Assembly (NCBI GenBank): GCA_010093605.1
Contig: MU004183.1
Coordinates: 496,001-560,000, forward strand
Direction of reading: 5' to 3'
Length of the DNA: 64,000 nt
From: Lophium mytilinum
Lineage: Eukaryota
Positions 46,525 through 61,656 of the stretch are shown one piece after another. The stretch's first letter is position 1. Each line of letters opens with the position of its first letter. Both the position numbers and the translations under genes were made by a program. Under the pieces are notes generated by a model. It worked only from the letters and a program-made list of their open reading frames with translations. It had not been told where the DNA came from and made no database searches.

Positions 46525-49500
46525 ATGGCCCCGCCAGCGACAAAGAGGAGGAAGCTCAGCCATAGCGACAGCAGTGAGGACGAAGACACCGCAATGTCTG
46601 GCAGCAACAATTTTGCTGGGAACGGGTCCGGAGAAAGCGAGCCGTCCAGCGGGGATGAAGACCTCATGGAAGAACACGGCCATTACGGAGACGAAGACGC
46701 CTTAGGAAGCGAAGGCGAGGAAGGCGATGCCATTGAGGAAGATATACCGGTAGCGATCAAGAAAAGGAAGACCACCGGTCCAGAAAGTGTAGCAAAACTA
46801 CGGAAGGGAATCGACGACATACCACAGGACGGAGTGTACACCGCTGAAATATACAAGTCAAATCTCTTCAAGCTACAAGTAGATGAACTGCTGAAGCAAG
46901 TCAAACCGAGGTATGGAAAGAAGGAGGTCACAAACGCAATGCACGCGTTGAAGAGCATTATCGAGCAAATACCTAATCGCGAACCTCAGCTGGTATGATT
47001 ATGTACATAATTTCCTCCTATACCATACACTAACAGTTCGTAGGTTCACGACGCGGAAAAATCTCTTCTCAAATCAAGCAAAATTTCCACGCCATTCCCG
47101 TATCCACGACCACCAAAAGACGCAAAATACAAGCTAGAATATGAGAAGCCGGCAGGCATAAACGTGACGGGAAGCTATGTCCTGGAAATAGCAGCTAAGC
47201 ATGGCGATGAGCTTTCTATTGATCTTGTTGTTACTATGCCCAGTGTAAGCTGTTCCCTCGTCTATGAGATGAGGCCCTACCTAACACCTCGCAGTCTCTT
47301 TTTCAAGAAAAAGACTTCCTCAACTATCGATATTTCTATAAACGGGCCTACTACCTAGCCTGTATAGCTGCCGGTATTAAAGATTCTAAGGACCACAAAC
47401 TTGAAATACGTTTCGAAAGCTTGAATGGCAATTCTTTACAGCCAATTTTGGTTGTGCGACCAAGCAAAGGTATGGAAGCATCCAGCCTGTCATGACACAA
47501 TCTAATTAGCTTCAATAGATGCCGGCGGCGACCTTTCGGCCTCGAACTTTTGCATCAACATTCTTCTTACGCCTGGAGAGAAGGTTTTCTCGTCTGAGAA
47601 GCTTCTGCCGGAGAAGAACTGTGTACGGCCAAAGGGCTCTAACGACGAATCGTCTTCCAGATTGGTCCCAACGCCTTTCTACAATGCAACACTACAGGCG
47701 GATTGCTCCATCACAGCATACTTGAAAGTGCTCCATGCCGCATCGAAGCAGAGTGATGCGTACAAGGACGCTTGCATACTCGGGAGAGTATGGTTAAGGC
47801 AGCGCGGATTCCATGGCCACGTCCGCAAAGGGGGATTCGGCAACTTCGAATGGGCCGCCATTATGGCAATTCTTCTTCGGAGTAGCAGCGGTACCGGTGC
47901 ACCAATTCTCTCGGCCGGATACAGCAGCTACCAGCTGTTCAAAGCCACCATTCAATTTCTCGCGACTAGAGACTTGACCAAGATCCCGTTTGCGTTCGAG
48001 GCTGCCAGCATACCGTTACCAAAGACTGAAGGAATGCCTTATTTCTTTGACGGTGAACGGAGTGTCAATCTGTTGTTCAAAATGACAGCCTGGTCTTACA
48101 AAATGCTACGGAAGGAAGCAAAGAATACATTGAAATCCCTGGCAGACTCTACGTTCGACCAATTTGATTCCACCTTCATTCTCAAGGTTGAGTCCCCAAT
48201 GTACAGATACGATAGCATGCTCGAGCTTCCTCTCACCGAATTTGAGCAAGACACCAACCACGAAGACATCCGCCAAACTCTACCTCAGATTTGCAAAAAG
48301 TTGTATACTACTCTAACACGTGGTCTCGGCAATAGAATAACTTCTCTGTCGATAAGCCTTCCCGAGGAGACTGGTTGGCAAGTCAGCTCGTCTAGGCCCT
48401 TTGAAGATAGACAAGGCAGAATATTAATCGGACTCGAGACAGACCCGGCCAATTCTACAAGATTGGTGGATCATGGCCCTGCAGCTGAAAATAAAAAAGA
48501 AGCAGCCTCGTTTCGTCGCTTCTGGGGCGAGAAGTCTGAGCTCCGTCGTTTCAAAGATGGGAGCATCCTCGAGAGTCTAGTCTGGTCACAGAAAGACAGC
48601 AGTGGGACGATTGTGGAACAGATCATCAGGCACCTCGTGCAGCGGCATTTCAGCGCCAAGGTTGCAGATTCGGCAAAGTTTTTAGGTGACTCTTTCAACC
48701 GCCTGATCACTGCTGGCGGTTTGAGCGGGCAGTCTGGGACAATTCCTTTCCTGTCACTCATGACTGCTTTCTCTACTCTTGAAAAGGACATTCGAGGGTT
48801 AAAGAATCTTCCTCTCCAGATTCGGCACATTCTCTCCGCGGATTCCCAACTACGCTACTCTTCAATTGACCCACCCTTCAACGCTTCAGCGCAAATGAAA
48901 ATTCCCGCATCCATTGTCGTACAGTTTGAGGGATCTGGACGATGGCCTGACGACCTACTTGCTATTCAACGGACCAAGATTGCCTTCCTTCTCAAGCTCG
49001 CGGAACTTCTTTCCGGAGAAAACGCACAATACATCACCCGTGTCGGTCTTGAAAACACTTCCCAACCATCTCGAAATCAATCCTTCCTCGACATCATCAC
49101 TCCGTCGGGGGCAGCATTCCGTCTCCGCATTCATCACGACCGTGAAGCCTTCTTACTGGACCACCAACTAAAAGACAAACTATTGGACGGCCCAACTCGT
49201 GAAGCAACAGCCCACGCTCTAGCAGCTTACAAGCGCGACTTCCTCCGTATTCCAGCACACACACAAGCTATGCAAACCCTCTGTACTCGTTTCACTGCGC
49301 TCTCGCCCGCAATCCGGCTTACAAGGAAATGGTTTGCCTCCCACCTACTAACGTCCCATTTCGCTCCTGAGTTTATCGAACTCCTCGTCGCACGCTCCTT
49401 CCTCCAGCCTGCCCCTTGGACAACGCCATCATGCGCTACCACCGGCTTCCTACGCACGCTGTTCTGGCTCAGCCGGTGGGACTGGACTCACAGCCCACTA

Positions 49501-50271
49501 ATCGTCGATCTCGCCAACGCGGAAAGCGGCGCCGACAGCATGAAAGCCGACGACGTAGCGGCCATCACGACGCGCTTCGAAGCCTGGCGCCGCATCGATC
49601 GCGACCTGAACCGGGTCGTGCTCTTCGCAGCCTCGAATCTAGATCCAGACGGCACCACATGGACGGACCGAGCGAGGCCGGCCAAAGTCGTTGCGAGACG
49701 CATGACTGTGTTAGCTCAAGCTGCTGTAAGCGTTCTCAAGGACACCGAGCTCGGACTCGTTGCAGGCACGACTGGAGTCGTTGACTTCCAACCTGAAACT
49801 CTCTTCGCGGGCCCGTTGAGCGATTACAGTTTTGTGCTCCGTATCGCGCGGCCGTTTACCCGCTTTGGGCGCCCGAAGTCGGATGCGAAGGCCAGCAACG
49901 CCATGTTCAAGAACTTGCAGTTGCAGATGCAGTCGGAGGACAGGGATGTGGAGACGGTTGGGTATGCGCCTGTCAGCTTGTTCGTTGAGGAGCTGAGAGA
50001 AGTCTATGGGAACACGATTATCTGGTTTTACGACGAGGAGGGTGGGGATGTGGTGGCTGGGCTCTGGAACCCGATGGTGACGGGGAAGAGGGGGTGGAAG
50101 GTCAGGTTGGGGACGTCGACTGTGCCTGTTGTTGGCAATTCTAAGCCATCAAAAGGGAATGATGATGGAGGAGTGGATGTGATGATCAATAAGGGTGGGA
50201 TTCTGAACGAGATCACCAGATTGGGTGGGGATTTGATTGAGAAGACAGAGGTGTTTGATATCCAAAAGTGA
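46525..50271 (+). CDS. UTP22: U3 snoRNA-associated protein 22 (Nrap family); introns ~46993-47043, 47245-47294, 47470-47518
   Basis: KRRKL NLS and acidic N-terminus; SNLFKLQVDELL, KDFLNYRYFYKRAYYLA, PTPFYN, WLRQRGF..GGFGNFEW, FRRFWGEKSELRRFKDGSILES, FEGSGRWPDD, GFLRTL..LSRWDW. Confidence 0.95.
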
Positions 50272-50829
50272 TGGGCTGGTTTGCATAGCGGTAAGCGTTG
50301 GATGATTTATTTCAGATCAGTGCTTGTACGCCAATCACTCGGGAAGTTTACGAACAAAACTCAAGAAAAGTTTGAAGCAATTCATATGATCCCAGAACCT
50401 TCTTCTTATTTCAAATATCCGAAACATGAGTCAGTATCGGTCTCGAACATGCCTAATGTCCAGTCTCTTTTGGTATATCATCGCCGTGAGGCTTCAGATC
50501 AGAGCTTTGCAAAAAGCCGACATACTGCTTTAGCTTTCAAGATGAAAACATCAAGGCCACCGGTTGTAATTCCTTTGATATCTCTAAACCCTTCCTTCGT
50601 GCTTGGACGGAGCGTGCATTCACACGTAATCACCTCTACATCACATTGTTGGATTATAACAATCACCTACAGAAATCAATGCTAGTAGCAAGCAAGACCG
50701 CTCATGTTTAGATGCCACTTACGGGCTGCATTTAAACAGCTACAAAGATCGGTTGTTGCAAGATGAAATTGAACGAACCTTATCGAGTGTATGTAGCAGA
50801 GTAACATGTATAAATATTTTTTTAGGTGT

Positions 50830-51490
50830 AAGTTGGTGATGGTGTGACTTGGTCCATGCCTTTCACGTGCTGTGATGGGTCCGAAGAGTATAAAAACTTG
50901 GTTCGCGCTTTGCAAATTTCCTTTTCCGTGGAATCTGGTCTTAGGGTTGGTGGTGGAAGGGAAACTTGGTGGATTGATCAAAAGATCTGAATATTGGGTT
51001 ACATGGGGGGTGGTCGCGCCGGTGGCCAATCAAAAGGCGCGAAGCTCGAACTATATGGGTTTGGTTCCTCGAGTGTTGAGCGCCCGGATATGCTCTATCT
51101 GCGCGTAGCTGGTGATGCTACCTATCATTCGCCCCCGCCTCCTCTGATAAACATCGGCGGCTGCTTCTTGATATACACATACCCTCATTGACGATATCAG
51201 TTCCCATAGTCTGAAAGTATTGGCCAGCACCACCGAACGGTGATGAAGAAGCCTCGAAGACGCTCTTCCTCCGCACGCAGACACCATTCGGGGGTGTCAT
51301 CGTACTGTTTTTGATCTCCCACCGCAAGAACCTAGACCCTTAAACACAATGGTATTGATCACCGCGCCGCCTCCTCCCACTCAACAAGAACATGCAAGCT
51401 TGGGATCGGGGTTTTCCGTTACACAGCAACCCCAAGCCATCATTCGCAAATACATGAACTTTCAGGATTCCCATCCCCTTCCTCCATGCT
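50830..51490. repeat. Weak back-to-back arrays of the ~50-bp GATCAAAA/TTTTGATC unit
   Basis: GGATTGATCAAAA (GATC at 50976), CCAATCAAAA (51028), then inverse TTTTTGATCTCCCACC (51313) and TATTGATCACCGC (51357). Confidence 0.45.
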
Positions 51491-52049
51491 TATTCCTGGT
51501 CCGCGAGCGACGAGATTATATACCCATGTCCGGTCTACCTCACGTGGGCCACACGGGGTTCTAGTTTCGACCTCGTGACTAGAATAGTAGTACTGTATTC
51601 GGTCATAGATGGCGTCAAGTACCCTGCGTTCAAGGTAGGCCGTAGCATCTGATATTAGGCGGAAGATGAGCTAAACTACAGAAATGCACTCAAGTTTGCT
51701 ACCGTGATTGCCTACTGTAGATAGGCGTCATAATCTAACGCCTGGGAGGGGAGGGAGAGTATTACTGCTTGAAGTCTTTCGCCATTGATGTATTTCTTGA
51801 ATGTGACACGAAAAGCACACTCACCGGTGCTCGATTTTCCAGGAGCAGTCTACTAGAATCAGTTGATCCGATAGAGAACTGGACGAGCCCGACCAAATGC
51901 ATGCTTAGTTAACGAGATCACCTATTCTCCATCTCTACAATACCCTCCGCCTCTTCCGAGCGATAGCAATAATCATCTTTCGGTAAGAGCACCAACCACA
52001 TTTCCCCCGGATATCCGTCACTGAAAATTCACAACGGTGAGCTCCACCA

Positions 52050-52480
52050 GAGCCCAGATCTACCCCCTCCTCCCAGCCATGTGCCTTTTTTTGTTGCGAT
52101 TTTATCCTCCAGCTCTTCTCCTCCCACCCCCAGTCATAAGCTCAGAGACTTAAGCTTTTTGATCCACCACGCCGGCCTTCCAGCCATGGCATGACAATAC
52201 CCAGCCATTTTGATCCACCAATCCTCCCACGCTCCCCGCCTGGCCTTCACAAATAGCCGTGCTTTGATCCTCCACACCTTCCGACCATAGTTCTTTAGTC
52301 TGGTCTTTTTTGCTCCTCCACCATACCACCAGCCCATACTCCGTACTCATCCTCAAGTTTTGATCCCCCACACAACGCCGCAGTCATCAAGTCTTGCGCG
52401 ACCAGCTTTCGATCCACCACTCCACCCATGACAAGCTTTTTCGACGCCAGTTGTTGAACCCCACCCCCTCCAAACCTCCC
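52050..52480. repeat. Degenerate ~50-bp periodic array, unit TTTTGATCCACCAC-[C-rich]-CCAT
   Basis: Cores at 52161, 52212, 52266, 52312, 52362, 52411, 52456 (spacing 45-54), weaker ones at 52057 and 52103. Confidence 0.8.
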
Positions 52481-53494
52481 CTGATCTCCAGAAGCCAGGT
52501 CCAGAGCGCGGAGGTCTCGGTTCTTATAGTCGAGAAAAACGGAGAAAAACCAGAGAGCAGGTGAGACTGACGTGGCAAGGAGACGAAGCATGACCAGGGC
52601 AGTGACGTATGCATGTTGTGTGAAACCTACAGGTGATGCCTCGGTACGTAAACATGGAAGGGATCTACCTGACTATCGCCTTATCACCCCTTTCCCATAT
52701 CTTTAAAGATCCTACATGACTTGCCTGTCGCGATTGTGAACCCGAGAACGTGGAGAGTGTAGAAATACAGGCTGACGAATAACGCGAGGAGCAGAATACC
52801 GGAGAGGGCGAGGATGCTGAGGGTGGAGCTGCAGAAGAAAGGGCGGTGGGGGAAGGGGAGGTAAAGGTGATGGGTAGAGGAGATGGACCGGGATGGTCGA
52901 TGGTATGGCAAAGAGTCTGAGCCTTGAGACGCAGAAGTGCCCGCGGATTCTTTCAAAGAGGCTGTGGAAGTGTTGAATCGATGACGAGCAGATAGATATC
53001 AAGTCCGAAGAAGAAAACGTAAAGATACTTGTCCCAACGTCACAACCGCAATTACTCTCACCGCGATGATCACAGCACTCATCAGAGATCCCGCTACCTA
53101 CAAGCACGATAACGAGTCCCAGTCCAGCATTCTGAGTGAATTAGGCGCCCCGCAGCAAGAGAACACAAAGCTGAACCCGCAAACCGCAGGCATGCCATGC
53201 TAGCGCAGCCCCTCTACTATTCCTCGTCGCACGACCCCCAAAAGCCCGATTCGTATCTCTTGCGGCAGGTTAGTGATCATTGAACGATGCGAAAGAGCAT
53301 AGCTGGACAAGGGTGTTTTACTTACGCATCATGGGTGCGATGGGTGCATGTGACTGTCGAAGACGAGAATTCGGAGGTGCTGATTTGATAGAAAGCGGTG
53401 CAAAGGCAGAGTTGTAGGCCCTCCTGGTAAGGGTCTGGGACGGGCCACAGGGGAGGCAGGAGGTGTGGATGCGGGGTCATTGAATGACATTGAA

Positions 53495-53530
53495 GTTGGA
53501 TTTAGACTTAGGGTTGGATTTAGAGTTAGG
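53495..53530. repeat. 18-bp direct repeat x2 in a hexamer-periodic tract
   Basis: GTTGGATTTAGACTTAGG / GTTGGATTTAGAGTTAGG. Confidence 0.8.
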
Positions 53531-56500
53531 TGGACGTTGGAGTTAGGAGGCGAAGTTGGAGTGGAAGTTGAAATGGAGGTGGTGTCCGGGTAGGAGCTAT
53601 GAAATGGTGTTTATTCTTTTTGCTTTGGAAATGCTATTTTGCAGAGATCGTTTGAAGCCTTCTTCTGCATGATTTCTCAGGAGGGCTTGTGAATCTTGGG
53701 AGTCTATCAGTGGCCTCCTCCGCGAGTTTGAGGGAGCGGTCATTTGGCTTCCTCTGCCGAGCACTGCTGCTTGCTCAAGAACACATTACCATGCCAGCTT
53801 GCGATGTGGTGTAACGGCACTCAGATTCACGTCCCAAGCCATGCAAGAGGAACTCTTGGCCTTTCCGCCTCCGTGGCCGCAGAGCACGCGAGGACCCCCG
53901 GCCATATCATGTGTCAACTGACGCCTCCAAGATTCCTCGGAACGTCGCTGTACAACTTCGTTTCCTGCTCGCGGGCCAGGGAAGCCTAGACTCGAGGACG
54001 CTTAGACAGTGCCAAGGAGAGTTGGTTGCACGGGAAAGTGATGCATATGTTAGCCAAGAACAGGTGAATATGTTGTGTTACGCCCAAATCCTTTCCGCGG
54101 GCTGTCATAATAAGAAGCGGGGAGCAGATGGATGATGTGTCTGTTCTGGATTGGTGGTGCGGAAGGCAATATCATGAACCAGACTACTGCTTGAAACGAG
54201 GTATGCTGGGCGTCAGGTAGATAAGAATGTGTTACCACAAAACGTGCAGCTTTCTACTCTTGGCTATAGGAAACGAGGTCTTCTATCTGGAGACTTAGAC
54301 ATTGGTAGACCACAAGAGATATTGAGGGGATGCCTCGCAGAAGGGAACAGATATCGCAAATCGAGGCCGAAGAGGAGAAAACTAGCTGGAAAGCCAAAAT
54401 GATGAGCGGGGAAATATACTTTGCCAATGTTCGTTACGAAAGTCGGTGTGAAGGGCCGTTTGGTGGTCAGATAAACACGTATCCAATCCGAAAGTGATAG
54501 ACCTTCCCCGCCATGTCCAGAACATCAGTTGCCGGACTATTCTCGCCGGGATATTTCTCGATCACTGCTGCTGTCACGAAACCGATGTGTCTCCTTGTTG
54601 AGAGGGGGTGTCTAGTATGAATCGCAGATGCTTGTTGCATTCAAGTTCAGGGCATTTGTTTATCGTGAACCCCGCCAACTAGAGTACACAATAGAAAAGC
54701 TGCATGCTCCGCTGACCGCAGACTCTTGGAAGCGCTTGGCATGCAGCAATGCGTTCAATTCGTGATCGATAACAGGGTAAAGAAGTCTGAGAATCCGTGC
54801 TCAGTTCGTACGGGCTGACACGAAGGAGACACGGCAGCAGCTACGACGAGTAATGGGCGCATGAAACGAAGAAAGGCCGTTCGCAGGTGTGCGCGTGATG
54901 GCTAGACGTCCGCTGATCACGGGGCAGAGGCAGAAAAGAGGCGGATGGGCCCAGGAGCCAAGGCGCGGAGTTCATCTTGGCGCTGGAGCGGAGAGCGTAG
55001 ATTCGACGGGGGGACTAGCAGAGGGGAGACCCTGGCGAGGCAAGGCGACGTGCATGTGCAGGATGGCGTTGAGGCTGTGCTGCTAGCTGTCTCGATGCCG
55101 ATGGATCGAGGGATCGATGGATCGATGGTGGAACGGCGTCTCTGGCACATGCTTTGCAGCAGGGCAGATGGGTTCGCAGGTCGCTCGGTGATGGCGGAGT
55201 GGTCTGACAAGCTTCTCGCGTACTCATGAAAATTGCAGTCAAGCGTTACGTACCTGCTACCTCGATCCGAAATCCGGCAACTGGAGGGCGAATCCGGCGG
55301 CACAATTGGACAGATGGCCCGGGGCGCGTGCTTTTGTATTCAGCCAAAATGATGATTTTCGAATTTTCCCCGGGCGCAAGCATGATGAGATGTGACGGGG
55401 GGGCATATCTGACATGGGCTGTCTGCATGCGAATCTGCAGACGGCAAGCTTGCGGACCACGACGGCGCAAACGCCGTAAAACAGAACGTGTTTGCGCCGC
55501 CAGTTGCTCGCTGCGTGCTCGTTGGGCAGCAATATCGGGTTCGGCGCCATAGAGAGGGAAGGGATAGGGTTAGCCTTTTTGCGCCTGGCCCTACTCCTGG
55601 CCTTGCACCTGGCCGACACACCAGTCCTCTCACGCACCCTTGGAGGATCGTATGCATAGGAGGCCCTATTTGGCAAAGCAGAAGGGCGGGGAGAAAAACA
55701 TGGTGGTGGTGCGAGGCAGGATCAGACGAGTGCTTGATAAGGGGACGTTGGACGTTGGACGACGTCGAGGACATGCCGCTACGCCGCGCATCCTTCGCCC
55801 ACCTCCCTCCGCAAGGGGTTCCAGATGTCGCAGAAGTTCCCGTCTCGACTTCCACCGGGCTCCACGCCACAGGGAAGAGGGCTGCTGCACGGAGGGCGGA
55901 CTGGCGGGCGGGAGAGATAGCGCAGCCCCGGAGCCCAGCAACCAACAAGATGACGGCGCTCGGGAAAGGCCAGTCGATCCCCGTCGTGCCGCGCTGGTGG
56001 AATTAGCCCAAAGGAGGAGGCAACCTGGCCATCTTCCAGGCGTGCCTCTCAGGATCCCAGCCGGCTATAATCTCATCTCGGACGTCACTCCAGCGGCGTT
56101 AACGGATCCGCGCCGTTGCACAGTGCACACGGGCACAGAAAGCAAAGAGAGGGCTGTGATAGCGGCTGCGGGCCTATCAGGGGCGCACGTTGTACCCCTA
56201 TCGCTGGGGCGTGGTGTTGAGGCAGCTTGCGGTGAGGGTGTCTGCATATGGGGGCTCGGGATAGTGCGCCCACATGGCTCATGGGCTGGGCGGATGCAGT
56301 TTGGACGGTTCCGAGGCGGTGGATGTGGATCTGCCAAGGAGCGGCGAGCGACTCTAGCGTGTGTTTCGCGTGGCCTTTGCAGCTGGAGCGCTGACTCTCA
56401 AACCCCGTCACAGCCCTGGGCGTGGTGTTGAGCCCAAGATGCGACTGAGCTTTGCCTGGCTACCTTGCTGCATCGCTCCCGAGCGCCTGCTGACGACGGC

Positions 56501-57320
56501 CGTGGCCATGTGCTTAAGACGGTGCCCCCCCAGCGTGAAGGCGAGCCCGGTTTCTTCGATTCACCAGTCTCACCCCGTCTTCCACGTTGCTGCAGCGGCG
56601 AATTGTTTGTTCTAGTGCATTCCAAACTGGGAAGCTTTGTTGTCATCCATCCACCCCTCTGTGACTCCAACTCACCGGCCTTACCAAGCCCAGCCTGCTC
56701 ACCCACCTCGCTCATCCGCGGACAGCCTTTATCTCGACGTCGTCCGGCCTGCTTCCGCTGTCTCCCGTTTGCTCCCTCCTCGAATCACATCCAGCCACGA
56801 GCACGTGCCGCCATAGAGTTGCGCCGGCTGCTGCCCCGTCTGTCATCGCCCGTCAGCTAGCCGTCGAAGCTTACCTCGATTCGGGCCTATCAGCACTGCG
56901 TCTCGTCGTCGTGCATAACCCAGAAGTAGGCAGCTGCGAGGACGCACTCGTCGCGCAAGATAAGCCTGACCGTTACACCGTCTCGATCAGATACATAACC
57001 GCCCCACCGTCACCTGCTGTGTTTGAAACACCTGCCGTACAACTACACCAGCAACGTCCGTGTACAGAAGCGATCCCGACGTAATATCGCACCACAATTA
57101 CGACACTACCCAATCAATATTGCTACATTGGGATTCACTGAGCCAGCTTGTCCCCTACTCAAAACCAACTCTCATCAACAACCCTCAAGCTTAATCTTCT
57201 TCTCAACCACGACACCTCCACGCATCACACCATCATCACCCAAAACCTCAATACCGACCTCACCTACCCACCCCTCGCCCAAGACGTCTCCATCAAACTC
57301 CCACCTCACGCACCGCAAAC

Positions 57321-57893
57321 ATGTGCGTCGCCGAACTTAATGTCTCCCTTCTCCCCTGCCGCCACCGCTGGTATCATCTCGTGCGCCCCTGCACTCCCTC
57401 TGCCAACCTCTCCAATTGTGGCGACAAGCTCGCCCTCTCCGGCTGGGAGATCAAATGCGACTTCTGTCCCTACTGCTCCGGCTGGAACTTGACCAACTCC
57501 GAGTATCGCCTGGTTGGCAATGACCGCACGCCCTCCATCGGCGGCCTCTCCCGCTCCCCGAGTCTCTCCCTCTCATCAGCCAGGCGCGAATCTCGCCGCG
57601 GCAGTCTTGCCCGCACCGACAGTAGCACTAGTATCACTATGATGGCCGCCCAGGAGAAGAACCGCGCACTAAATGCCCGAGTTGATGCCTATCTACGCGT
57701 CACCCCCGAACACATGCCGGAGTCGAAGACCGGTGAAGACGAAGCCGACGGCGTTGGCGGCCCACAGAGCCTGAGCGACAGCGACAAGAGCGAGGGCCAG
57801 GGATCGTCTGCGCATAGCGAGACGAAGGGCTCTGGACTCTTCGGCAAGGGCTGGAAGAAGTCGAAGCGGTTCAGCAAGACACTATTCAAGTGA
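57321..57893 (+). CDS. Small hypothetical protein with N-terminal Cys/His cluster
   Basis: MC..PCRHRW..C..C..CDFCPYC followed by Ser/Arg-rich low-complexity tail; C-ending codon bias; AAACATG start after a CA-rich leader. Confidence 0.8.
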   Translation: MCVAELNVSLLPCRHRWYHLVRPCTPSANLSNCGDKLALSGWEIKCDFCPYCSGWNLTNSEYRLVGNDRTPSIGGLSRSPSLSLSSARRESRRGSLARTDSSTSITMMAAQEKNRALNARVDAYLRVTPEHMPESKTGEDEADGVGGPQSLSDSDKSEGQGSSAHSETKGSGLFGKGWKKSKRFSKTLFK

Positions 57894-58829
57894 TACGCTT
57901 TACAAGCAGAGAGTGCTGTCCTAACGATTGTGCTCTCTCACTCTACTCTCGGTTCATTCTTTCTCTCCTGTCTTTTGCCAGATCTGTTCTCCTCGGATTT
58001 CTTTCTTAGCGGATATACCCAGACTTGTTTTCATCTCAGCGCGCGGCATTGGAAGCGTATTGCTCTGCGGGGCGCTACGTCGAGGAAAAACAAACGAATG
58101 AATCATACTCTCGGCCGGGTTTTTCTCTTCCTCAAAAAGATTTCATGAAAAGCAAGGGCGACCTTCAATTCTGCTGGAGGTATTTGTGTTTTTCGGCGTT
58201 TTTCTGGAAAAATCGGCATGGGAAATGGGAATTGGTCCTGCTCTAGGATTCGGATATCGGGACCCCCGGGATGGGCTGGGTAAGCGCGATCGACCTCCTC
58301 CGGGACAGCCGGTTACGAGTACGTTACGAAGCGGACTCGGCTCGCTTTAGTATTTGTGTGGTTCCTGTCGCTACGAGAATCTGGGAATGGCTCTTGGTTT
58401 CCGGTGGCTATGTAGCGAGTGAATGGAACTCGATCTCACCTCTCATTCTGATCCGTATGCTATGACTGCAGTGCCGTTCTATCGATACAATCTTTCAACA
58501 CCTACAGGTAGAAAACCGAGAGGCTTTTCATCAAACCCATCCAGATTGTCTTCTCGCGCATCCATTCAGCTCACCCGTCTCTGCGTCCTATGTAAGCAGT
58601 TCGCGTATAATCACCGCCACCGCGGCCTCCCCTACCCTCCCTACCCCTCTCACCCTCATCACACGGCTTTCACGTGCCTGTCTCCACTCACCGCCTCCGC
58701 CTCGCACCCTGTCCACCTACCTCATCACGTGCCCTCCCTTCGTCCTCCCTTTCTTCCTGTATAAAACCTCTTCCTCCCAACCCCAAACTCGTCTCCAGAA
58801 AGACAGGACGGGGGGTCTTGAGCAGGCGG

Positions 58830-59260
58830 GGATAAATATTTACCTACTCGACTACCCATGGGCGAGTCGGGAGATCAAATTGCCCCAACCATTTCGTCGA
58901 TGGCTGGGTGGAGTGGTGGATCAAATCAAACAGCGGCTCAAGCTATGGTGGGGTGGGTGGTGGGTTGAGTAAACTCGAAGAGGAAACAAAGCCTATGGGT
59001 GTGGGTGTTGGGAGAGCAGAAATCCAGAGCTGGAGTGTGGGATGGCTGGAGGGGGTGGGGGAGCAAAACAAGTGAAGACCAGGAACGAATATCATGGCGG
59101 GGGAAGTGGGTGATCAAAAACGCGACGTCGACGACGACGATGGCTGGAAAACGTGGGGGAATTGTTTGGAATTGGTTCTGCTCGTCATGGGAAGCGGTAG
59201 ATGGTGGATACTTGAGGGTCTCGACAATGGATGTGAACAGCATCATTAGGTGGATATGTG
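58830..59260. repeat. Degenerate ~47-bp periodic array, unit ATGG-[G-rich]-GA(T/G)CAAAA (reverse complement of the 52-kb array unit)
   Basis: Cores at 58873, 58919, 58967, 59014, 59061, 59112, 59159, 59207, each preceded by ATGG 15-22 nt upstream. Confidence 0.8.
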
Positions 59261-60570
59261 GAAGCTACCCAAGCGCAAATGCTTTCTCCATTAGGCACAT
59301 ATAGGCCATTTTTTGACCACTGTTCGTTATCTTCCTTGTTTTCTAGTTGATGGTCAATGAACAGGACTCGTATATAAGTGGCTTCAAGAAGGTATATGAA
59401 ATGTCCACGTGATCAGGACGCTAGTGCATGCACGTCCCATCTCAACCTGCTGTCAGGCCTGAGTCGTCAGGCCGTCTCTTCTCCTTACACCGTCATGCAT
59501 CACTTCCTCGAATCGCTCTGATTTACTACCACTATGTTGCAATTGCTAGCTACTTGTCGTGGAACAAGGAGCTGTATGCTGTGTACCTAGCTTTCTGCTT
59601 TTCACTGTCAATCATTCCAACTAGCCAGTGCTCAACGTCCGACCCTTACGCTACGTGTACGACTCACAAGCAAGCTACTATGCAAGGCAATGGACAAGCC
59701 GTGCCGTTTAACTCACTTCCTTCCATTCCCATCCGCGAGTGTTCTTCACTTCTCTTCGAAATCCGCTACCAACGCGCGCGTGGGACACGGCATGATAGTT
59801 TCCATGGCCACGACAACGCGCTCAACAACCAACATCAAACGACAACGCTGACGCCAATACCACCGTGAATAGAAGGTCATTTTCTCAAGATATAGAGCCG
59901 GTCGTCGGTACAGTAGGTTAGTTGTGAAGCGTGGGAGGGTGAAGGTGAAAGTTCAGATTAAGGCGCCAGTTCCTTTTACGAATCAACATGAGTAGAAGGT
60001 CTTTGTAGGTCTCGCACAGACCTTGGGCTGCAGCTTATGTAGTTCGCTATTTTCTCTGAGTGATCGAGGCCCTTGGAGTCGAAAAACGACTTTGTTTCTT
60101 GTCAAAGGGATGCTTTGTCGCCATGTTTTCAATGTCTCCACCAACCTCTTAATGATCCCAACATGTAAAGCTAGGGGTAGAGCGTCACCTCTACATACGC
60201 TACAAGTTCTTAACTACGCAAGATTTTACTTCGTTACGATGCCAACGCTGCACAACGCATCCTCTTCTCACTTTGATTTGTGCACGGACAACGCTCATTG
60301 GCTCGCGTTCCTATTGTCATTCTTTATTCGCATTGTCAACTTGACAATAGCATCAAAGCGCACTGTTAAGCCGCGCCTCTCATATATAACCACTCTTCTA
60401 CGTGTCTCTAGAAGACTCTTCACACACGCATCTTTTGACTCAGACTTACTTGCATCTTCAAGCAAATACAAGTCTTTTTGAATCTCCCAAACAGCTTCCT
60501 GTTCTCCATTACCACAGACAGCACCCTGTTTACCACCATCACAAATATTTCCCTTCGCGGAACCTCCAAG

Positions 60571-61656
60571 ATGTCGCAAACTTCACTCAAGACCGCCGCG
60601 ATCGCCACGGCTCTCGCGTTCGCCACCGTCACCAGCGCACACTACTCGCTAGTTGACGACTACACCAAAGAGAAGTTCTTCCCTGGATTCGATTTCTTCA
60701 CTGGACCAGACCCTACATCGGGATTCGTGCAGTACCAGACCCTCGAGCAATCCATCGCCAACCAGTATATCGGCTATCTCAACAATTCGATATACATCGG
60801 CGCGGATTACACTAACAAAACTCCACAAGGTCGGCCATCTGTGCGAGTCGAAGGCAAGAAAGCCTACAACCAAGGACTCCTGGTGGCCGACGTCCTTCAC
60901 ATGCCGGATAGCACGTGTGGCTCGTGGCCAGCACTCTGGATGTTTGCAGACCCGTGGCCAAGCATGGGAGAGATTGACATCGTCGAGGGAGTATCTGACC
61001 AGCGCAGCAATATAATGACGCTGCACACTAGCGCTGGGTGCGCCGTTGATAATGCATCCGCACCTCTGAACGGCGGCGGCAACGTCAACAACAACGAAGC
61101 CAGCTTCCTCGGTCACATGTTGACGAAGAACTGCGACGTCGGAGCTCCCGGTCAAGACAAGAACGTTGGATGTGGCATCGAAGCTCCGTCCTCCATCGCT
61201 CCACCGGCCTCCCAGCGCCGCGATACTAACGCAACCGCACACTCTGGCTCGCTTCCTTCCTATGGAACTGATTTCAATCAAGCCGGTGGCGGTGTCTATG
61301 CCATGCAATGGACTGATAAGTTCATCGCCGTTTACTTCTTCTCCCATGCCGCCAACGAGACGATTCCAAAGGATCTCCTTTCCGGCAATCCCGATCCCTC
61401 AGGCTGGGGCACTCCACTCGCGCGCTTCGGTGGTGACGGATGCGACTTCACCAAACGGTTCAAGGATCTGAAGATTGTCATCAATCTCACGTTTTGCGGC
61501 CAGTGGGCAGGCGATATCTGGACAACTGGCGGATGCGCAGCGAAGACCAAGTCTGCGACATGCGAAGCATACGTCGAGAACAACCCAGATGCTTTCTCCG
61601 AAGCTTACTGGGAGATTGCTAGCCTAAAGTGGTTCGAAGACAAGGATGGACAATAG
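60571..61656 (+). CDS. Secreted GH16 endo-1,3(4)-beta-glucanase (Lam16A-like)
   Basis: Signal peptide; FDFFTGPDPTSGFVQY, GRPSVR, HMP..CGSWPALW, catalytic GEIDIVEG, FNQAGGGVYAM, NLTFCGQWAG, AFSEAYW. Confidence 0.95.
   Translation: MSQTSLKTAAIATALAFATVTSAHYSLVDDYTKEKFFPGFDFFTGPDPTSGFVQYQTLEQSIANQYIGYLNNSIYIGADYTNKTPQGRPSVRVEGKKAYNQGLLVADVLHMPDSTCGSWPALWMFADPWPSMGEIDIVEGVSDQRSNIMTLHTSAGCAVDNASAPLNGGGNVNNNEASFLGHMLTKNCDVGAPGQDKNVGCGIEAPSSIAPPASQRRDTNATAHSGSLPSYGTDFNQAGGGVYAMQWTDKFIAVYFFSHAANETIPKDLLSGNPDPSGWGTPLARFGGDGCDFTKRFKDLKIVINLTFCGQWAGDIWTTGGCAAKTKSATCEAYVENNPDAFSEAYWEIASLKWFEDKDGQ

Follow-up and report, generated by a model that had tools for sequence, protein, structure and literature searches.

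Two inverted arrays of a bipartite motif in putatively transcribed non-coding DNA of Lophium mytilinum

In a 64,000-nucleotide stretch of the Lophium mytilinum genome (assembly GCA_010093605.1, contig MU004183.1, positions 496,001 to 560,000; hereafter the window, to which all coordinates refer), we find two arrays of a common bipartite motif that lie 6.4 kb apart in inverted orientation, have no open reading frame running through them, and are each traversed in the same sense by an RNA-like contig (Table 1). A sequence-only reading of the window had singled out the first of these, array 1, as a non-coding series of one motif recurring every ~50 bp within otherwise unrelated sequence. That array is real, and all seven motif copies then reported were located on the + strand between 52156 and 52465, but it is not unique, the inverted second array (array 2) having been missed. 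Judged from their sequence, both resemble arrays of binding sites for a putative partner and do not resemble a gene or any known RNA or mobile element; we class them as core-plus-spacer putative binding arrays in what appears to be transcribed non-coding DNA.

Table 1. Coordinates of the two arrays, of the RNA-like contigs that cover them and of associated features in the window.
Feature	Position	Strand	Description
Array 1	52050-52480	- (G-rich strand)	~8 units of 46-62 nt
Array 1, core starts	52420, 52371, 52321, 52275, 52221, 52170, 52112	-	minus-strand coordinates
Array 1, degenerate cores	near 52456-52470 and near 52050	-	
Array 2	58860-59215	+ (G-rich strand)	motif family of array 1, inverted relative to array 1
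Array 2, starts of well-formed cores	58867, 58913, 58957, 59055, 59106	+	
Array 2, degenerate cores	near 59010, 59159, 59200	+	
Isolated partial unit	51280-51323	-	GTGGGAGATCAAAA...; ~730 nt beyond array 1; weak match (51311-51322)
T1	51659-55370	-	RNA-like contig 10, 3645 nt; covers array 1; strand from intron
T1 intron	53259-53325	-	67 nt, GTAAGT ... CACTAAC ... AG, canonical fungal spliceosomal
T2	56808-59391	+	RNA-like contig 14, 2584 nt, mean word depth 693; covers conserved ORF and array 2
T2 ORF	57321-57893	+	190-aa Cys-rich protein, conserved in Dothideomycetes, no Pfam family
TATAAG	52523-52528	- (G-sense)	99 nt upstream of first ATGG of array 1 (52429)
TATAAAA	58760-58766	+ (G-sense)	98 nt upstream of first ATGG of array 2 (58858)

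Unit anatomy and relation of the two arrays

A repeat search recovered from array 1 a six-copy family, TTTGATCCNCCAC, with start-to-start steps of 51, 54, 46, 50 and 49 nt, unit lengths that bear out the earlier remark that the spacings are not consistently multiples of three. The degenerate word TTKVTCCNCCA occurs nine times in the window against 1.06 ± 0.91 expected, a count reached by none of 100 dinucleotide shuffles, and six of the nine matches fall within 52101-52370; for the 12-mer TTGATCCACCAC with up to two mismatches there are 18 matches, with 5.43 ± 2.48 expected and 11 in the largest shuffle. When the whole window was scanned for 10-mers recurring at lags of 40-60 nt, array 1 ranked first (19 hits, median 0) and the region of array 2 second. 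Periodicity, which the sequence-only reading had set beforehand as a test of its own claim, is significant against shuffled controls.

Read on the G-rich strand, each unit is composed of a core, GTGGNGGATCAAAA, followed by ~19-21 free bases, a second box, ATGGCTGG, which reads ATGG(C)TGG in the alignment, and a G-rich linker. This second half-site, originally noticed as CCAT on the opposite strand, is genuine: the ATG lies 32-34 nt past the core start in nine of the 12 well-formed units (binomial P = 2.9e-9), the remainder comprising two units at 38-39 nt and one in which CAGG replaces ATGG, and with the four degenerate units added the same distance is found in 9 of 16 (P = 1.2e-7). One correction concerns the regular spacing: its constant part, on the G-rich strand, is the interval that separates a core from the ATGG box after it, with a standard deviation of 2.2 for core to ATG versus 4.4 for ATG box to next core (12-25 nt). 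As had also been observed, the rest of the unit differs from copy to copy: within array 1 the cores are 0.81 identical and the spacers 0.47, the latter to be compared with 0.445 ± 0.085 for shuffled spacers. A conserved core with variable spacers in several copies is the arrangement of lncRNA repeat modules. At a minimum score of 30, TRF reports no tandem repeat over 52050-52480, so whole units are truly unlike each other, and array 1 is, as described, unlike a normal minisatellite.

Cores that are 81% alike, set beside spacers of near-constant length and random-level identity, argue for selection on the motif, and together with the tight core-to-ATG distance they agree with the earlier impression that motif and spacing are selected. 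Neutral decay of a tandem duplication would hardly yield conserved cores next to random spacers. We infer that selection would act on the bipartite site, that is, on its binding by a sequence-specific partner.

The C-rich-strand version of the motif lies on the + strand in array 1 and on the - strand in array 2. A 12-unit profile searched against the 64-kb window with nhmmer gave 11 matches at E < 0.1, seven in array 1 and four in array 2, and matched elsewhere only a weak partial unit at 51300-51322 (E = 0.53). Decay has gone further in array 2 than in array 1 (core identity within array 2 is 0.48 with degenerate units counted), and three of the eight candidate cores of array 2 are barely recognisable. 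Aligned directly by Smith-Waterman, the arrays score 359 against 180 ± 28 for shuffled sequence, whereas neither their inner flanks (546 versus 471 ± 38) nor their outer flanks (215 versus 187 ± 21) are alike; no significant similarity that would indicate a wider duplication was detected at the 5' or 3' array boundaries or in the upstream 300 nt, and tblastn found no pseudo-copy of the T2 ORF within T1. Collinear, unit-by-unit paralogy, first read from a global alignment (score 65 versus 10.6 ± 5.8 for mononucleotide shuffles), did not hold up against controls. In a comparison of seven units per array, which omitted from array 1 its degenerate first unit and from array 2 the unit at 58867, spacers in corresponding positions were 0.44 identical, those in non-corresponding positions 0.46 and shuffled ones 0.445, and the score of 77 obtained in the true unit order stands against 70.6 ± 10.1 for shuffled unit order, with 28% of shuffles equalling it. 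Either the duplication is old enough for its spacers to be saturated, or units have turned over inside the arrays.

Coding capacity and comparison with known sequence classes

Each of the six frames contains between one and five stops in both arrays, which for array 1, with three to five per frame, confirms the earlier non-coding call. Protein homologues were not found, neither for the 98-aa ORF of the G strand (word-based search) nor for the 102-aa ORF of the C strand (exhaustive HMMER search of 1.84 billion representatives), and there were no Pfam matches; by the same three measures (open frame, homologues, Pfam) no repeat-protein gene, intact or decayed, was recognised. Coding by way of mini-ORFs starting at the conserved ATGs was considered and rejected, as the ATG-to-core distances fall in all three residue classes modulo 3 and hence leave no conserved peptide.

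Among RNA classes, Rfam returned no match at E ≤ 1 over 50000-56000 (a range that takes in array 1), ARAGORN found no tRNA gene, and the folding of the arrays is no better than that of shuffles (z = -0.42 and -1.20). These results do not favour the suggestion, made from sequence, of a processed multi-unit or structured RNA, against which it also counts that a single RNA-like contig passes unbroken through each array. Two further candidates were discarded: a tRNA or B-box likeness of TTCGATCC, given the ARAGORN null and the presence of TTTGATCC in most units instead, and base-pairing between the G-rich array 2 and the C-rich block that precedes it, whose joint fold is no more stable than that of shuffles (z = +0.83).

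The G-richness of the sense strand raises a different prospect, that of an element acting through two-tetrad G-quadruplexes or R-loops that would pause polymerase or mark the 3' region with no specific partner involved. GC skew in the RNA sense is indeed ~+0.4 to +0.5 across both arrays, two-tetrad G-run motifs number eight in array 1 and six in array 2, roughly one per unit, and 25-mers with a G4Hunter score of at least 1.2 make up 15-19% of the arrays versus 3% window-wide. However, canonical quadruplex motifs of the G3+ kind are lacking in both arrays, G4Hunter scores are higher in some other bins along the window, and G-richness alone would explain neither the conserved non-G parts (GATCAAAA, ATG) nor the fixed spacing, so that we consider a purely structural element very unlikely.

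A relic of mobile DNA has somewhat more to recommend it. The arrays might be subterminal or internal repeats, once bound by transposase, that a single ancient DNA transposon or two ancient copies of a non-autonomous element left behind, with no present function: motif clusters at both ends in inverted orientation are a feature of DNA transposons, the two inverted copies 6.4 kb apart have no detected flanking similarity, and selection on the motif could date from within the element. A short dispersed repeat also lies close to array 1, at 50646-50690 and 51637-51711. About 70 nt of it are matched at ~85% likeness by seven or more contigs of X1, a DNA run, and by several of the RNA-like run X3, all of which then diverge, and in one contig 50681 is linked to 51704 with a change of strand; an inverted pair of at least 14 nt was not found in this repeat, which may be the end of a small mobile element. 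Set against such an origin are the lack of terminal inverted repeats beyond motif-to-motif pairs and chance-level 11-12-mers, the lack of a transposase or other mobile-element domain in all 16 ORFs between 50281 and 60481, the presence between the arrays of a single-copy gene conserved across the fungal class, and a regular ~50-bp period unlike typical subterminal repeats. Moreover, the depth of X1 over 51835-54770 is accounted for by the contig of the locus alone at a threshold of 80% likeness, so there are no close copies elsewhere in the genome, even though array 1 is well preserved. We therefore regard a mobile-element relic as unlikely. No match to a transposon end or to a decayed repeat-protein gene, the other outcome that the sequence-only reading had named as speaking against its proposal, was found.

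The arrays thus fail the defining tests of a minisatellite, a transposon end, a repeat protein, a known RNA family and a canonical G-quadruplex. A literature search, in which the motif itself was not used as a search term, turned up nothing on it.

RNA-like contigs, neighbouring genes and relatives

Contigs of a public sequencing run (X3) are identical to the window (0 differences), with depth between 0 and 693 along the stretch. One of them, contig 10 (T1), skips 53259-53325, an interval kept by X1, and from this splice joint and the depth range we infer that X3 is RNA, its run type being labelled only as a guess. The ends of T1 are not taken as true ends because the contig stops in the dispersed repeat at 51659. 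In T1 the longest ORF with an ATG start measures 98 aa, and the two ORFs searched gave no homologue; T1 is a candidate fungal lncRNA, spliced, at least 3.6 kb long and divergent from a conserved gene. The strand of contig 14 (T2) is given by the ORF that it contains. T1 and T2 run divergently, each with the G-rich strand of its array as the sense strand, a same-sense arrangement that the sequence-only reading had overlooked. The RNA-like contigs continue for at least 390 nt after array 1 and for ~180 nt after array 2. Array 1 is contained in a spliced RNA-like contig with no ORF longer than 98 aa, which as a contig is not proof of a single mature RNA, and array 2 may lie inside an mRNA 3' UTR; contigs as such cannot establish the presence of an array in mature RNA, its RNA level, or its linkage with the ORF in one molecule.

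A TATAAR box on the G-sense strand precedes each array at nearly the same distance from its first ATGG (Table 1). With 27 occurrences of TATAAR on both strands of the window, a match of the two distances to within ± 2 nt has a chance of ~1e-3, a coincidence noticed after the fact. Such boxes might serve as promoters from which array RNAs start, or as signals for polyadenylation of the upstream RNAs. A third TATAAR (TATAAG, in the 59373-59391 region, + strand), 18 nt short of the end of contig 14, would be suitably spaced for a poly(A) positioning element. Ahead of each G-rich array, on the sense strand, comes a strongly C-rich block (58600-58800 on +, 52800-52900 on -); the one before array 2 contains a 30-nt direct repeat (58611-58640 and 58688-58717), and the two blocks could not be aligned with each other.

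The window is fungal, as seen from an ORF at 47662-50271 with five Nrap domains, towards whose 3' end T1 heads in convergent orientation. The T2 protein has 119 homologues, all hypothetical and all from Dothideomycetes, the closest being 93% identical and from Mytilinidion resinicola. Residues 1-52 hold seven invariant or nearly invariant Cys and two nearly invariant His, followed by a central part rich in R and S and then by a basic tail; AlphaFold modelled the protein poorly (mean pLDDT 55), too poorly for a structure search. The contig that encodes it is the deepest on the stretch (693). Farther on, a 392-aa ORF at 60478-61656 (+) resembles, by eye, a secreted glycoside hydrolase, with no Pfam family at E ≤ 1e-5.

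A protein-guided contig scan yielded 13 metagenome loci with T2 orthologues (44-73% protein identity). The core, allowing up to two mismatches, is present in none of the 13, the unit profile is likewise unmatched (best E = 4.6), none of the four long loci examined carries a ~50-nt array downstream of the T2 orthologue, and the 13 loci lack synteny with the Nrap gene or the 392-aa ORF; a periodic stretch in one of them (L009) proved to be a K/E-rich coding ORF. These loci belong to distant relatives, and the arrays are consequently not a class-wide feature of the T2 gene. A run from a related organism at ~93-96% likeness (X4) has no cover over either array and so no bearing either way. One of its contigs, of 191 nt at 55126-55311, shows seven differences in 186 nt, which makes this 5' piece of T1 about as conserved as the adjacent coding sequence.

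The absence of the motif from 13 of 13 relatives' loci, the degeneracy of array 2 and the undetectable unit correspondence between the arrays would suit a decaying and functionless remnant of an old tandem duplication or of a dead repeat-protein gene, in which the core is slower to decay or was under constraint up to a recent time, as would the fact that some unit lengths of array 1 sum to multiples of three (51, 54, 46+50). Neutral decay, on the other hand, does not give 81% cores alongside random spacers of near-constant length, and a dead gene is at odds with stops in all six frames of both arrays, with ATG-to-core distances in three residue classes and with the lack of homologues of the 98-aa and 102-aa ORFs and of Pfam matches. 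On balance we find a mere remnant doubtful.

A tentative RNA-level reading and comparison with known systems

We tentatively prefer to read each array as a multivalent, RNA-level platform of bipartite sites for one putative factor, a reading that we hold possible, though still short of probable. About eight bipartite sites per array (GUGGNGGAUCAAAA, ~20 free nt, AUGGCUGG) would be bound by one sequence-specific factor and would be read on RNA, array 1 being carried by the spliced T1 with its lack of a credible ORF, and array 2 by the long 3' part of the divergent neighbouring T2 mRNA or, alternatively, by an RNA of its own starting at the TATA-like box that lies ~60 nt ahead of the array. Each RNA would recruit or titrate many copies of the factor, in the manner of lncRNA repeat modules. 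Reading on RNA is favoured because both arrays are same-sense in RNA-like contigs, one of them spliced and devoid of a credible ORF. Also consistent with it are the uneven conservation, the fixed geometry with free sequence, the single consensus despite unalike surroundings, the specificity of the profile to the two arrays in 64 kb and the TATAAR boxes at 99 and 98 nt. Against it stand the lack of excess RNA structure (z = -0.42, -1.20, +0.83), the 1-in-2 chance of finding the same sense in both units, the absence of the motif from the 13 orthologous loci and the visible decay of array 2. Furthermore, a fixed 20-nt spacing of half-sites is more typical of double-stranded DNA than of RNA sites.

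Half-sites fixed at 32-34 bp, a period of ~50 bp and freely varying spacers would also suit a polar array of sites read on DNA. A putative sequence-specific DNA-binding protein would then serve as roadblock terminator or boundary at the distal end of each divergent unit, and the inverted pair would bracket the T1/T2 domain. Since the arrays are inverted, each has the same polarity relative to incoming transcription; a TATAAR that is a possible poly(A) signal lies ~60 nt before each array, with a third at 59373, and T1 points to the convergent Nrap gene, whose 3' end it faces. Nonetheless, the RNA-like contigs cross both arrays and go on, so that termination within them would be partial at best, the arrays are asymmetric about the divergent promoter, and the binding protein is itself putative. 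We consider a DNA-level terminator or boundary somewhat doubtful, and return below to platforms read on RNA.

It is through arrays of conserved cores and free spacers that a protein is brought in many copies to several well-studied non-coding RNAs and chromatin boundaries, and to our knowledge such arrays are almost undescribed in filamentous fungi, our literature search not having been aimed at this question. The present locus offers a compact test case, with two copies of the module, a defined bipartite motif, a host transcript that is spliced and apparently non-coding, and a conserved neighbour with an apparently high level of expression. Were the cores to prove conserved in related Mytilinidiales and a binding factor to be found, the result would be a new cis-element/partner pair and a way into what fungal lncRNAs and long 3' UTRs do; arrays private to the species would be a curiosity of repeat evolution.

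Among DNA-level systems, the gypsy Su(Hw) insulator (12 sites), the Pol I Sal-box/Reb1 terminators and the S. pombe IR B-box clusters all place short motifs at regular intervals among unrelated spacers over a few hundred bp and act in an orientation-dependent manner; in S. pombe, the IR elements bracket a domain as an inverted pair. The array motif matches none of theirs; its likeness to the B-box (TTYGATCC) lacks the critical C in most units, and in contrast to such arrays these are run through by RNA-like contigs, a terminator or boundary role being only putative. In hAT, CACTA and Mutator DNA transposons, the subterminal repeats cluster short motifs for transposase binding close to either end, inverted with respect to each other, whereas here terminal inverted repeats, a transposase and other genomic copies at ≥ 80% likeness are all lacking, the interior holds a conserved host gene, the ~50-bp period is strict and each array keeps one orientation. 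With classical minisatellites (VNTRs) the arrays share head-to-tail units of tens of bp and a strongly G-rich strand, but they are alike only in the core and the ATGG box, their spacers being at random level.

On the RNA side, NORAD units and roX boxes are similar lncRNA repeat modules. The DICE of the 15-lipoxygenase mRNA 3' UTR comprises ~10 tandem motif copies bound by RNA-binding proteins in translation control; its unit is a pyrimidine-rich 19 nt from a mammal with no spacers, unlike the G-rich sense, bipartite build and 20-nt spacers found here. The nearest described architecture is Xist repeat A, in which 7.5-9 copies of a well-conserved GC-rich core with variable spacers lie in a long non-coding Pol II transcript and act as a multivalent protein platform (PMC12101419). 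The arrays resemble it in having ~8 units, a conserved G-rich core, free spacers and, for array 1, a spliced RNA-like contig lacking a credible ORF, and differ from it in their unrelated sequence, in spacers that are fixed in length and not U-rich, in having neither predicted inter-repeat helices nor excess folding, in their fungal origin and putative partner, and in the position of a second array next to or inside an mRNA 3' region. In its fullest form, which we put forward with considerable doubt, the reading of the arrays as RNA-level platforms would amount to a fungal repeat-module RNA system: two paralogous modules, each with a TATA-like box and ~8 GUGGNGGAUCAAAA-N20-AUGGCUGG sites, would serve as multivalent decoys or scaffolds for a putative sequence-specific RNA-binding protein and couple the fate of the highly expressed conserved T2 mRNA to that of the divergent non-coding T1. 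Such a system, if true, would bring a principle like that of Xist repeat A to a filamentous ascomycete.
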